From: a virus
Lineage: Duplodnaviria > Caudoviricetes
DNA length: 64,000 nt
Virus record (IMG/VR): IMGVR_UViG_3300043101_000190
Span: 36,424-100,423 of that record
Direction: 5' to 3' (one strand)
A program made the translations under genes and the position numbers. A model generated the notes under the pieces. It worked only from the letters and a program-made list of their open reading frames with translations, was not told where the DNA came from and searched no databases. Shown one piece after another: positions 37,063 to 46,302 of this stretch; positions within the stretch are counted from its first letter, which is position 1; the number at the start of each line of letters is the position of its first letter.

Positions 37063-37140
37063 ATGGGATATATATTTGCTTTATTATTCCTTATAGTAAT
37101 TGGTATTGCACTAAATGAAGATGAGGAGGACAAAAAATGA
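37063..37140 (+). CDS. 25-aa single-TM peptide coupled (ATGA overlap) to LamG gene 1
   Basis: MGYIFALLFLIVIGIALNEDEEDKK*; AAGGGG SD. Confidence 0.4.
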   Translation: MGYIFALLFLIVIGIALNEDEEDKK

Positions 37141-38916
37141 GTTTAGTTGCACATTATAATTTAAATGGTAATTTTAATAATACAGGCGTTGGTGATGCTG
37201 AAATGACAGTTTCTACTACACCAACTTATGTAAATGGAAAAGCAGGGTTAGCCTTATCTAACGGGGGGGTACTGGACAGCTGACCAAACTAATAAATTAT
37301 TAAATAATCAACAATTTAGTTTTGCTACGTGGATATATGTAAATGCTGAAACAGGAAGTACAAGTAATAAGGCTATGATTTTCGGTAGAGATAGTATGCC
37401 AAGACAATATTCATTATTTCAATATCCAAGTTGTAATGATTTACATTGGAGTTGGTATATTACGTCTTCAATAGGTTTTGCAGGTGTACTATATTCAGTA
37501 TTACCTTCTTATCAATGGACTCACATATGTGTTACTTATAACAATCCCAATTGTACTATTTATATTAACGGTGAAAAAGTAAAAGAAGTTACAGGTGTTA
37601 CTAAATATACTGATTTCAATTATCAAACAGAGGTAATTCATAATTCTGCTTATCATTATTTGATGGATTATAGAGTATATAATCATTGTTTATCTTTTAA
37701 TGAAGTAAAAAATATTTATAAGGGTTTATTTCTTCATTATCCATTAAATAATTTAATAAACGAAAATTTAGTTCCTAACTTAGCACAATATACTAAAAGT
37801 AATCCTTATACAATAGACACTCCAAAAGTTGACGGTTGGGTTTGGATGACAGGTACAACTTTTATTTGTGAGGCTAATACTAAATATACTGTACAGGTAA
37901 AATCTGACGGCACTTGTACGTCTGTTCATAGCGGTAGTGGTCATCTACCTGAAAATAAAGATTTTTCTGTATGGCTTTATACCTGCAATGAAGATACTAC
38001 AAAAAATGCTTATAATGGTGGCTATGATACAGCAGACAACTTAAAAAATAATACGCATAATTATAGATTTGAAAATGGTAAACATATATGGACTTATACG
38101 ACTTCGAGTAATGCAAAATATATGTCATTTAGACTTAATGCTTATTCAAATGGTACTGATAATGTAATAGTTAATTTTTGGGATATGAAAATAGAAAAAG
38201 GTGATACAGCAACCAAATATACGCCTAATGTAAATGATGAACTATATACACAAATGGGTTATGATGATAAAACTGTTTATGACGTATCAGGTTATTGTAA
38301 TAATGGTACAATAGTTAATTCTCCAACTTTTAGTTCAGATAGTCCTTTTTATAGTGGTGCTTATTATTTTGATGGTGCAGAAGTAAGACAAGTGACTACG
38401 CCTAATATGTTGCTTGAAAATTTCACACAAGGCACAATTTCAATGTGGATAAATAGATATTCTACTGATAGTAATTGGAGAACCTATTTATATTTTGCTA
38501 ATTCTTTTAATTGGACTGGTAATGGATTAGATGCAATTATTTTTGCTACAACTGGTGGTTCAAATATAAGTATGGATTGTTGTAGTAATGTATATTCTTT
38601 TTCTATTGATTTAAATAAATGGTATATGTGTACTTTGACTTGGGATTTGGAAACACATACAGTAAAATATTATGTTAATGGTGAATTAAAGAAAACCAAT
38701 ACAAATGACAGAATAAATACAACATATATGTCAAAGCACAACTATCATTTAATAGGTAATCATAATGGTTATGCTTCGGCTGATTATAGTTTGTCTGATT
38801 TAAGAATTTATTATACAGCTTTAACTGATGAAGATGTAAAAGAATTATATCAAACAAGATTTAAAATAGATGTAAATGGTAATTTTTTGACAACAGGTGA
38901 ATTGGTAGAGGAATAA
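37137..38916 (+). CDS. double LamG/concanavalin-A-like lectin adhesin 1, frameshifted (OFF) at poly-G
   Basis: GGAGG SD, MSLVAHYNL start like paralogs; stops at 37283 with G7; G6/G9 joins it to ORF 37375..38916 (592 aa with G6). Confidence 0.8.
37263..37269 (+). repeat. poly-G tract G7 (OFF state)
   Basis: AAC GGGGGGG TAC; sits exactly at the +1 frame break. Confidence 0.9.
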
Positions 38917-38947
38917 AAGTATTCCTCTATTAAGGGAGGGATATTTT

Positions 38948-44304: not shown

Positions 44305-44892
44305 ATGAGCGTTCAATTTGGCGAGAATGGTAATTGTAATTTAAAAGAACTTCAAACATTAGTGCCTGATTTAGATATGGAATTATATATAACTGATGAT
44401 AATTGCGTTTTTGCAAGAGTAGTTCACCATAACAATAATTCAGGTACTACTTTATTTACAAAAGATAATGTAACTGATATCCAAACTGAAGATTTATATT
44501 CAAGATTATATCTGATGGAACAGTTTAGAAATACTGATGGTGGATTTGAATTTTTAGTTTTGCAAGAAGATGATACTAATATTTATCGTTGGAAACAATC
44601 AAGTAATCCAACTACGACAACTGCTTGTACTGATTATGTAAATATTTCTAATACATCAGCAGGCTTAATGCTTTGTTCAGGCAACACTTTTATGGCTCAT
44701 TCTTCTTCATCAGGTAATTGGTGGTGTGCTGTTGGAGCTTATACAAAATATAATACAGGTATACCAGGTTTTGGTGGAAAAACTGTTACAGGTTATTTAG
44801 ATTTTTATGTTAGAATAGATAATTTACCCGATAGGAATAAAATGAGTATATACGAAAATTATGTTGTGTGTAATGATGTTTACGAATTATAA
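44305..44892 (+). CDS. fibrinogen/C-lectin-like receptor-binding accessory protein
   Basis: YSRL..FEFL..RWKQSSNP..NWWCAVG..GIP pattern; termini shared with 42634. Confidence 0.5.
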   Translation: MSVQFGENGNCNLKELQTLVPDLDMELYITDDNCVFARVVHHNNNSGTTLFTKDNVTDIQTEDLYSRLYLMEQFRNTDGGFEFLVLQEDDTNIYRWKQSSNPTTTTACTDYVNISNTSAGLMLCSGNTFMAHSSSSGNWWCAVGAYTKYNTGIPGFGGKTVTGYLDFYVRIDNLPDRNKMSIYENYVVCNDVYEL

Positions 44893-45024
44893 TTAGACAT
44901 AATATTTTCATCAATTAAAAAGAGGCATATTTACCTCTTTTTTTATTTTAATTTTTATCTTGTTTTTTATTTTAATTTTAAATGAAATTTCAATTATAAT
45001 TTATGTAAGAAAGGAGTTAAAATA

Positions 45025-46302
45025 ATGGCTCAATTAAAAGATTTAATTGTAAATGGTTCGGCAAGAATATTAAATACATTATATGTGTCTAATGTGAATA
45101 CAACAAATACAACCTCGACAAATGTATACTCTAATCTTTTATCGTTACAAGGTACAACCACAAGTTCAAATGCTTTTGATAGTACAAATCCTAAAATACA
45201 ATTTTTAAATTCAAGTGGAGACCAAGGTTGCCAACTTGTTTTTACAGATTATGATGCAATACAAGCACCTGCTTCTTTGACATTGGTAGGTCAATCAGGA
45301 GAAGAAGCTGTTTATTTTATAGCACCAAATATTAAAGCAACATCAGCTTTTTATGGTGGAACTATCACTGCTGGAAAAACTACTTTGAGCAGTGATTTAG
45401 AATTTTCTCAATCGGGTACAACTACAAGAGGTATTATAGGATATATAGGTGATAATGATTATTGGAGAGTTGTTGGTGGTGCTACTGCTTCTAATGCAGG
45501 TTTCTTAGAAATAGCAACAGCTGAGGATGCTAATGAACCAATATATGTAAGACAATATACGGGTAAATTTACTACAGTAAAAAGAACACTAACACTTCTT
45601 GACGGTAGTGGTAACACTACACTTCCTGGTACTTTAACAACAGGGGGGGATATTAATGCTTCAACTTATAGCGTAAAGGCTAACCTATTTAATAATCCTT
45701 CTGGTGGTTTTTATAGTGCTATTTCTTTAAAGGATAATGGGGATTTTTTAGTCAATTTTGCAAACGATTTATATATATTTCGCTCTAATGCCTTAAATTT
45801 AGATGTTAGCAAAATAAAAATAAATTCAGATTTGTGTTGCTATAGTTATTCAACTACTGGACAACAAGCCTATCATCAAACAAACTTTTTTCAAGCCTCA
45901 ATGTTTTCTTCTGACAATAGTGGTTATAGTTCTGTTTTAAATACAGCTTACGATACAGCAATTGTTTCATGGCAAATTTCTAGTGGTGGTCAGGCGGATT
46001 TTAAAACCGTAACAACTAATAGTATAGCAAATAAGAATAACAATGATGATTTTTTAATTAAAATTGGTGATGGGAATAGTATATATGTTGATGCTAATGG
46101 TAGTGACGTAATTTCATTATCTGGAAATGGTGATATTAAAGCGGATGGTCAAGTAACTACTGATGGTGGCATTACTGTTGGTACTTCCAAAAAAGTATCA
46201 AATACAGAAACATTAACTACCATAACAGGTATTTATTCAGGTACGGCTGCAATTTCTTCTGTATCTTTATCATCAGGTCAAATTTATATGAAGTATAGTT
46301 AA
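45025..46302 (+). CDS. fibre segment containing in-frame poly-G (ON)
   Basis: MAQLKDLIVNGSARI start like 43337; LEIATAED..EPIYVRQY module shared with giant fibre. Confidence 0.75.
   Translation: MAQLKDLIVNGSARILNTLYVSNVNTTNTTSTNVYSNLLSLQGTTTSSNAFDSTNPKIQFLNSSGDQGCQLVFTDYDAIQAPASLTLVGQSGEEAVYFIAPNIKATSAFYGGTITAGKTTLSSDLEFSQSGTTTRGIIGYIGDNDYWRVVGGATASNAGFLEIATAEDANEPIYVRQYTGKFTTVKRTLTLLDGSGNTTLPGTLTTGGDINASTYSVKANLFNNPSGGFYSAISLKDNGDFLVNFANDLYIFRSNALNLDVSKIKINSDLCCYSYSTTGQQAYHQTNFFQASMFSSDNSGYSSVLNTAYDTAIVSWQISSGGQADFKTVTTNSIANKNNNDDFLIKIGDGNSIYVDANGSDVISLSGNGDIKADGQVTTDGGITVGTSKKVSNTETLTTITGIYSGTAAISSVSLSSGQIYMKYS
45643..45649 (+). repeat. poly-G tract G7 (ON state)
   Basis: ACA GGG GGG GAT in frame; GGG is otherwise an uncommon Gly codon here. 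Confidence 0.8.

Follow-up and report, generated by a model that had tools for sequence, protein, structure and literature searches.

Are the four long guanine runs in the receptor-binding and fibre genes of this uncultured tailed phage switches that turn those genes on and off? The window, that is, the whole 64,000-nucleotide stretch of DNA that was analysed, comprises bases 36424-100423 of a 100,423-bp IMG/VR viral contig (IMGVR_UViG_3300043101_000190) with a GC content of 27.6%. Within it a cassette of putative adhesin and tail-fibre genes carries four poly-G tracts, numbered 1 to 4 below, which we interpret with a probability of roughly three in four as hypermutable slipped-strand contingency loci, located in the frames of host-recognition genes of a jumbo phage related to Bacillus phage G. 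The features on which this interpretation depends are listed here, where OFF refers to a tract length that breaks the reading frame and ON to one that keeps it:

27665..36196, plus strand: giant fibre gene, 2843 amino acids (aa), listed in the gene tables as Phage_fiber_rpt
37137..38916, plus strand: gene C, two-LamG adhesin-like, 592 aa if read through (Laminin_G_3, two stretches, E 5.5e-28)
37263..37269, plus strand: tract 1, G7 (OFF), at gene C codon 43, inside the N-terminal LamG domain
37773..38185, plus strand: central domain cassette of gene C, replaced by a divergent cassette in lineages A2 and B (defined below)
38948..40677, plus strand: gene D, two-LamG adhesin-like, in 411-aa and 138-aa pieces here and 578 aa in natural ON alleles
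40108..40115, plus strand: tract 2, G8 (OFF), at gene D codon 387, about two-thirds into the gene
40724..42571, plus strand: gene E, intact paralog of C and D with no tract, 615 aa (LamG, CBM_4_9-like, LamG)
43337..44294, plus strand: gene G, short fibre, with a 118-aa N-terminal piece here and 319 aa in natural ON alleles
43656..43662, plus strand: tract 3, G7 (OFF), at gene G codon 107
45025..46302, plus strand: gene I, tail fibre, 425 aa (phrog_10316)
45643..45649, plus strand: tract 4, G7, in frame, at gene I codon 207

A census of G runs showed that these tracts stand apart from the rest of the sequence. Runs of at least 6 G in the window, and equally in the whole 100,423-bp contig, were limited to G7 at 37263, G8 at 40108, G7 at 43656 and G7 at 45643, and C runs of at least 6 were found in neither. 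The counts by run length were bimodal, with 11150, 2255, 216, 39, 6 and 0 runs of one to six G followed by three runs of seven and one of eight, so that runs of at least 7 G were observed four times when approximately 0.2 were predicted by extrapolating the decay of run counts. All four tracts fell inside 8.4 kb, within four LamG-adhesin or tail-fibre genes that make up ~6% of the contig. Codon usage pointed the same way, as glycine was encoded mostly by GGT (65%) and GGA (23%) and seldom by GGC (8%) or GGG (4%), and the four GGG-GGG pairs observed among 73 Gly-Gly pairs (~0.12 expected) were all accounted for by the tracts. The sequence-only reading, made from the letters of this DNA without database searches, had claimed both the restriction of G runs of 6 or more to receptor-binding and fibre genes within 8.4 kb and the preference for GGT and GGA; our counts agreed on both points and extended the first to the entire contig.

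Translation of the cassette demonstrated that the open frame switches exactly at tracts 1, 2 and 3, where the required shifts of +1, +2 and +1 are each satisfied by a run of G6 or G9. Setting these tracts to G6 produced single open reading frames (ORFs) of 592 (C), 575 (D) and 318 aa (G) with zero internal stops, and once the tracts were in frame no other lesion was seen in C, D or G of the window. The repaired products were collinear with intact paralogs: C aligned end-to-end with E (residues 1-592 against 1-615, E 3e-46), D matched E on either side of tract 2, and residues 95-318 of G aligned across tract 3 with residues 2572-2843, the last ~270 aa, of the giant fibre (BLASTP E 2e-17), which makes G, over its C-terminal two-thirds, a paralog of the last part of that protein. 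All of this had been proposed from the sequence alone, including the breaks at three tracts, their repair by G6 or G9, the collinearity with the gene at 40724 (gene E) and with the end of the giant fibre, and the in-frame position of the fourth tract, and each of these claims was confirmed.

The proteins affected by the tracts share a recognizable architecture. C, D and E, at ~580-615 aa, have N- and C-terminal Laminin_G_3 domains (PF13385, E 1e-16 to 6e-39, two per protein) that flank a CBM-like middle domain, and end in the motif NGNF.T.G.LVEE. G and I have their first 20 residues in common, and gene I matched a tail-fibre PHROG (phrog_10316). Full-length D is represented by the natural ON alleles P0124 and P0127, and an AlphaFold model of a natural ON D allele (predicted template modelling score 0.70) contained three beta-sandwich domains, with the glycine run of tract 2 placed in a loop where the C-terminal LamG domain begins; this predicted loop position fits a tolerance of two or three glycines. 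Foldseek matches of the D model were to generic LG and lectin-like domains and are informative at the level of fold only. Neurotoxin-binding-domain structures among these matches were dismissed as generic lectin-fold similarity, and no toxin domain was present. C, D, G and I are probable host-recognition adhesins or fibres, as judged from their LamG and tail-fibre PHROG homology and from their location between the giant fibre and further fibre genes, and C, D and G would be carried as adhesins on the virion.

Whether tract lengths vary in nature was addressed with metagenome consensus contigs (JGI and Logan/SRA assemblies), on which all tract and lineage comparisons are based. Exact-protein look-ups recovered ~25 contigs of this phage, which came from ten JGI samples (3300035497-502, 3300036769, 3300043006/07/81) and from four runs in SRA (SRR11792607, SRR11793810-12), and these fell into three lineages relative to the window, namely A1 (~100% identical), A2 (99.85%) and B (95-96%). 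The alleles found in the window and in these contigs (L006 to L033) were:

Tract 1: G6 in L013, L016 and L018; G7 in the window, L017 and L020; G8 in L014, L015 and L019
Tract 2: G8 in the window, L009, L010, L013, L024 and L025; G9 in L006, L008 and L011; TTT+G7 in L012 and L026
Tract 3: G7 in the window only; G9 (ON) in L006, L009, L010, L013, L024, L025 and L026
Tract 4: G7 in the window, L009, L010, L013 and L033; GGTGGTA in L006 (lineage B)

The A1 contigs L009 (10.8 kb), L014 (12.0 kb), L015 (11.2 kb), L024 and L025 had zero mismatches to the window and differed from it in tract lengths only. Overall, ~69 kb of A1 alignments contained four substitutions and nine indels, and all nine indels were at the tracts; tract length is the only feature in which these otherwise identical genomes differ by insertion or deletion. 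ON as well as OFF alleles exist as natural sequences, and protein database records likewise hold D both split (411 and 138 aa) and whole (578 aa), together with G at 319 aa. Three lengths were seen at tract 1, and at tracts 2 and 3 ON and OFF lengths co-occur within a lineage without accompanying substitutions, a pattern compatible with change in either direction. Four C/D/G states were observed: OFF/OFF/OFF in this record, OFF/OFF/ON, OFF/ON/ON and ON*/OFF/ON, where ON* denotes a tract 1 that is in frame in a gene whose alternative cassette nevertheless bears an A7 frameshift. The window and L013 cover all tracts on one contig, and the other states were joined from separate contigs of one sample. 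The mixed G6-G10 alleles that had been anticipated in related genomes and metagenomes were thus found at three tracts (G6/G7/G8 at tract 1, G8/G9 plus an in-frame 7-G variant at tract 2, and G7/G9 at tract 3), and a 47-kb lineage-B contig had just two G runs of at least 6, at tracts 2 and 3, both of them G9.

The 7-G variant of tract 2 belongs to a single sample (3300043081), from which L012 and L026 are overlapping contigs. In this sample TTT+G7 replaces TTTC+G8 (window 40105-40125; L012 ~2733-2745; start of L026), a net loss of 2 nt in which the base preceding the run is also changed, and the resulting allele is in frame with Trp-Gly-Gly in place of Ser-Gly-Gly(-Gly).

Such length differences may alternatively be errors of sequencing or assembly, the true tracts being uniformly in frame. 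Homopolymers are error-prone, all of the data are metagenome consensus contigs and several contigs end near tract 1, which are points in favour of this explanation. Nevertheless, equal lengths recurred over samples and over two assembly pipelines (tract 3 G9 in seven contigs, tract 2 G8 in six), the tract 3 alleles differ by two bases rather than one, and the 12 A/T runs of 7 found between 26383 and 49112 were constant in length across the ~69 kb of alignments. Tract 4 was also constant at G7 in five assemblies, so that being a G7 run does not by itself lead to miscalling. Taken with this evidence, an artefact appears very unlikely. The contig breaks near tract 1 had themselves been considered as a sign of heterogeneity at the tract and were set aside, as most occurred at the A1/A2 divergence boundary (37296-37372); L021, which ends inside tract 1, is alone excepted and provides only a hint.

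Selection on the sequences downstream of the tracts was estimated as the ratio of non-synonymous (dN) to synonymous (dS) substitution relative to lineage B. The dN/dS values were 0.13 for the 3' part of C, 0.60 for D and 0.30 for G, compared with 0.32 for the intact gene E, and the downstream frames were stop-free for 185-513 codons in a ~27% GC genome rich in stop-like codons. This comparison had been suggested as a check by the sequence-only reading, which also held that its proposal would fail if homologues lacked the tracts and the downstream segments decayed neutrally; such an outcome did not occur, as the tracts persist in close relatives and the segments beyond them, with frames open and dN/dS of 0.13-0.60, retain conserved coding. 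Decay of the three genes as ordinary pseudogenes was accordingly ranked low, considering the open frames, the dN/dS values below 1 and the existence of ON alleles.

Several observations weigh against reversible switching as the explanation for these alleles. None of the assemblies held a fully intact gene C allele, and the G8 and G9 alleles of tract 2 follow lineage (A versus B), where within A1 only the 7-G variant shows a change. The value of 0.60 downstream of tract 2 could mean relaxed constraint, and tract 4 is invariant, with G7 in five assemblies. Some Logan and JGI assemblies may moreover share samples, which would leave fewer independent observations than contigs, and the role of these proteins as adhesins is drawn from LamG and tail-fibre PHROG homology and from gene neighbourhood.

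Some of these points can be interpreted as hypermutability without adaptive value, in which G runs inactivate redundant adhesin paralogs and their length variation is neutral drift towards gene loss. This would explain why gene C was intact in none of the assemblies and why tract 1 moves between two OFF lengths, G7 and G8, within lineage A1, the only alleles of this tract in that lineage. It also draws support from the dN/dS of 0.60 downstream of tract 2, from redundancy of the cassette, in which E and the giant fibre are intact paralogs, and from the lack of such tracts in phage G and in more distant LamG loci (see below). In opposition to this, D and G are commonly found as ON alleles in genomes that match OFF ones everywhere else, all the downstream frames run for hundreds of codons without a stop at dN/dS values below 1, and the excess of GGG-GGG pairs is confined to host-recognition genes. 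Furthermore, the lineage B sequence at the tract 4 site, GGT GGT A, differs from the G run by two synonymous changes and one non-synonymous change, three in all, which involve the rarest glycine codon. Drift towards loss was therefore judged unlikely.

The history of gene C is further complicated by cassette exchange. Its middle domain occurs as two very different cassettes in co-occurring lineages (window 37773-38185; L013 10510-10828; tail of L016). The G6 alleles L013 and L016, from two samples, carry the swapped central cassette with an A7 frameshift that A8 would restore to frame, and this A7 may represent a second kind of homopolymer break.

Out-of-frame alleles could also yield full-length protein beside a truncated one if ribosomes were programmed to shift frame, or RNA polymerase to slip, at the G run. 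It is generally known that a G heptamer lets tRNA-Gly re-pair in a shifted frame and that long homopolymers can cause transcriptional slippage, and each OFF product is a defined N-terminal piece with a possible function of its own. A programmed site should hold a fixed length, however, and be out of frame as the norm, and neither was found here, where length varies and in-frame alleles are frequent. The required shifts differ as well (+1 for tract 1 as for tract 3, but +2/-1 for tract 2), and no conserved downstream stimulatory structure was seen, though none was searched for. Recoding as the sole explanation is highly improbable; it could act as a leak on top of a switch in the DNA rather than as its replacement.

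Slipped-strand switching remains the interpretation that we prefer, and the sequences display what is expected of such loci: a G run of about 7 or more inside an ORF, toggling of the frame by run length, polymorphism far above background among near-identical genomes and downstream coding that is kept, with the exception of the alternative gene C allele bearing the A7 frameshift. Under the proposed mechanism, a G run would gain or lose a G by slipped-strand mispairing during replication of the phage DNA. As lengths of 6 or 9 alone keep frame, C, D and G would toggle independently of one another, with C produced as a whole protein or as a 50-aa stub, D as a whole protein or as its first LamG domain and middle domain, the C-terminal LamG domain and conserved tail being absent, and G as a whole short fibre or as its 118-aa N-terminal piece. 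ON alleles of G6 and G9 would differ by one glycine in a loop. The progeny population would consequently be mixed in which adhesins its virions carry. Switching within one population is presumably fast and reversible, and by analogy this heterogeneity would amount to bet-hedging against variable host surface receptors.

The number of switches was originally put at four, giving up to 16 states. Length variation was demonstrated for three, corresponding to 8 states, and this part of the claim stood. The fourth did not, as tract 4 showed no switching among the five assemblies and its run is absent from lineage B; tract 4 is at most a potential fourth switch. If the switching interpretation is true, GGTGGTA versus G7 at this site would mark the gain or loss of a switch between lineages. 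We lean, by a small measure, towards the broader proposal that at least three independent poly-G switches let a ~500-kb phage G-like phage, probably of a Gram-positive host, vary its combinations of LamG adhesins and short fibre.

The relationship to Bacillus phage G (Donellivirus gee, NC_023719; 497.5 kb) was indicated by the major head protein (window 6025-6954), which is 74% identical to its phage G counterpart over 92% of its length, and by a helicase (42% identity, E 5e-121) at the corresponding place in the gene order. The two phages also share a low GC content, and the protein-cluster table placed fragments of D on a 502,690-bp contig, a length close to that of phage G. On these homologies the phage is assigned as a relative of phage G, which by head protein is the nearest phage in culture. 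Because of the 502,690-bp contig and the head-protein identity, the CheckV completeness of 55% is probably too high, and the 100-kb record probably represents about one fifth of the genome. The proposal that this is a large phage unrelated to Campylobacter phages and with a probable Firmicutes host fits the head-protein result; a Bacillota host is plausible by this kinship, and Pfam scans of ten neighbouring ORFs gave no host clue. Unlike the present contig, phage G has zero G or C runs of at least 7 over its 497.5 kb and, among the tail-region proteins tested (adhesin E, a 1229-aa protein and an 834-aa protein), no detectable homolog of any. Since phage G lacks both the tracts and a homolog of adhesin E, the cassette and its switches, as judged by these sequence comparisons, are specific to the uncultured lineage.

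Among the loci examined, the system was seen only within the present lineage. Loci around more distant LamG homologs (L007, L028-L032) had no G or C run of at least 6, megablast of the locus against cultured phages returned no match, and pattern scans of IMG/VR for tracts 1 and 2 returned only the known 47-kb relative. In the one metagenome scan made with protein E the sole match was a fragment of 36% identity, and no Campylobacter phage was matched by the locus DNA, protein E or protein I.

The closest functional parallel is found in the Campylobacter Fletchervirus phages, in which polyG tracts of 7-11 G are reported in receptor-binding protein genes (Sorensen et al. 2021, Cell Rep 35:109214; summarised in PMC8713573, PMC11959909 and bioRxiv 10.1101/2025.10.21.683753). 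According to Sorensen et al. (2021), phase variation affects two of these proteins, of which there are up to four, and a 2025 review terms these phase-variable receptor-binding proteins an exceptional case. In both systems G runs (7-11 G there, 6-9 here) lie inside ORFs, those of receptor-binding proteins there and of probable host-recognition proteins here, in several genes per genome of low GC content. Length change in Fletchervirus switches expression and leads to mixed progeny, whereas here the same logic is read from sequences alone. The two differ in that no sequence relationship or common descent was found, the present system working alike without being a member of that group; in that the switched proteins here are LamG lectin-fold adhesins and a short fibre; and in that tract 2 lies two-thirds into gene D, so that its OFF form keeps two domains. 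Bacterial contingency loci of Campylobacter, Neisseria, Haemophilus and Helicobacter show comparable G-run slippage in ORFs for surface interaction, with ON/OFF control by frame and with tracts that stand out in a genome depleted of such runs. The tracts described here are by contrast virus-borne and would be replicated by a phage replisome, switching per burst and progeny rather than per cell lineage.

Other phages diversify by different means. Homopolymer slippage in T2/T4 and other coliphages is reported to give reversible frameshift variants as a form of bet-hedging (Gomez, Barrick and Waters, bioRxiv 10.1101/2025.10.21.683753), and the same preprint describes such repeats as under-represented in the tail-fibre genes of BASEL phages. 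These coliphage loci consist for the most part of A/T runs or of short ones, in genes for evading defences such as agt and rIIA, in contrast to the long G runs found here exclusively in fibre and adhesin genes. The Mu G segment with Gin, the P1 C segment with Cin and the BPP-1 Mtd retroelement are likewise phage-encoded devices for diversifying host recognition within one lineage, and invertible tail-fibre segments resemble the present cassette in having a small partner gene after each of the alternative fibre genes. Neither an invertase nor inverted repeats nor a reverse transcriptase takes part here, however, and a change in homopolymer length gives presence or absence of a protein rather than exchange of its tip or mutagenesis. 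Our literature search found no description of a poly-G switch for relatives of phage G or other jumbo phages, and in the literature searched phase-variable phage receptor-binding proteins were described for Fletchervirus only. The present locus shows Fletchervirus-like logic in an unrelated jumbo phage, with evidence from natural populations.

This suggests that the host range of an uncultured phage can be a property of its population that homopolymer lengths determine. Gene-calling software and tools that estimate completeness would read such genes as broken, a host range predicted from a consensus genome can be wrong, and any isolate of such a phage would by its nature be a mixed stock. If the interpretation is true, contingency loci encoded by viruses would serve low-GC phages in general as a means of bet-hedging and would not be an oddity of Campylobacter phages.

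Genes B to J share one direction, downstream of the 2843-aa fibre gene. The remaining features of this region are:

36200..36227, plus strand: terminator-like hairpin after the giant fibre gene, a 12-bp stem and T run (consensus match only)
36276..36959, plus strand: gene B, 227 aa, no assigned function; the anchor for fetching assemblies that span tract 1
42634..43260, plus strand: gene F, 208 aa, no assigned function
44305..44892, plus strand: gene H, small gene after fibre G, 195 aa
44917-44942, plus strand: terminator-like hairpin after gene H (consensus match)
46318..46911, plus strand: gene J, small gene after fibre I, 197 aa

The hairpin at 36200..36227 is a probable start boundary of a B-to-H transcription unit. 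A promoter scan was uninformative (70 found and 83 expected). F, H and J are small genes that each follow an adhesin or fibre gene, and their weak similarity, with a mutual identity of ~22%, would at best suggest a tentative role as partners or chaperones.

Tracts 2 and 4 precede similar peptides, GG-INAPKYS (40116-40140) and GGD-INASTYS (45650-45675), with GGN-INASS in lineage B, which may represent a junction motif shared by the downstream modules. The C-terminal half of fibre I and gene J are divergent in lineage B (window 45849-46918 versus L006 8565-9718), encoding 446 and 222 aa compared with 425 and 197, a pattern that resembles an exchange of fibre tips immediately after the tract 4 site. 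Lineage B also carries a 776-bp insertion between its E and F homologs (window ~42614-42618), in the middle of the adhesin cassette and on the opposite strand, that encodes an isochorismatase-family protein (L006 4550-5095, minus strand; PF00857, E 3e-13).

In the segments 47521-49006 and 54090-55163, two GT_PLOD-like glycosyltransferase genes listed in the gene tables come directly after the cassette, and a further fibre-like ORF has an Mtd_N-like N-terminus at E 3e-5, which is below the Pfam cut-off. Finally, a 656-aa ORF at 61775-63745 (minus strand) has PHROG matches of HNH/homing-endonuclease, DNA-binding and resolvase-like type and is the only long minus-strand gene in that part of the contig.

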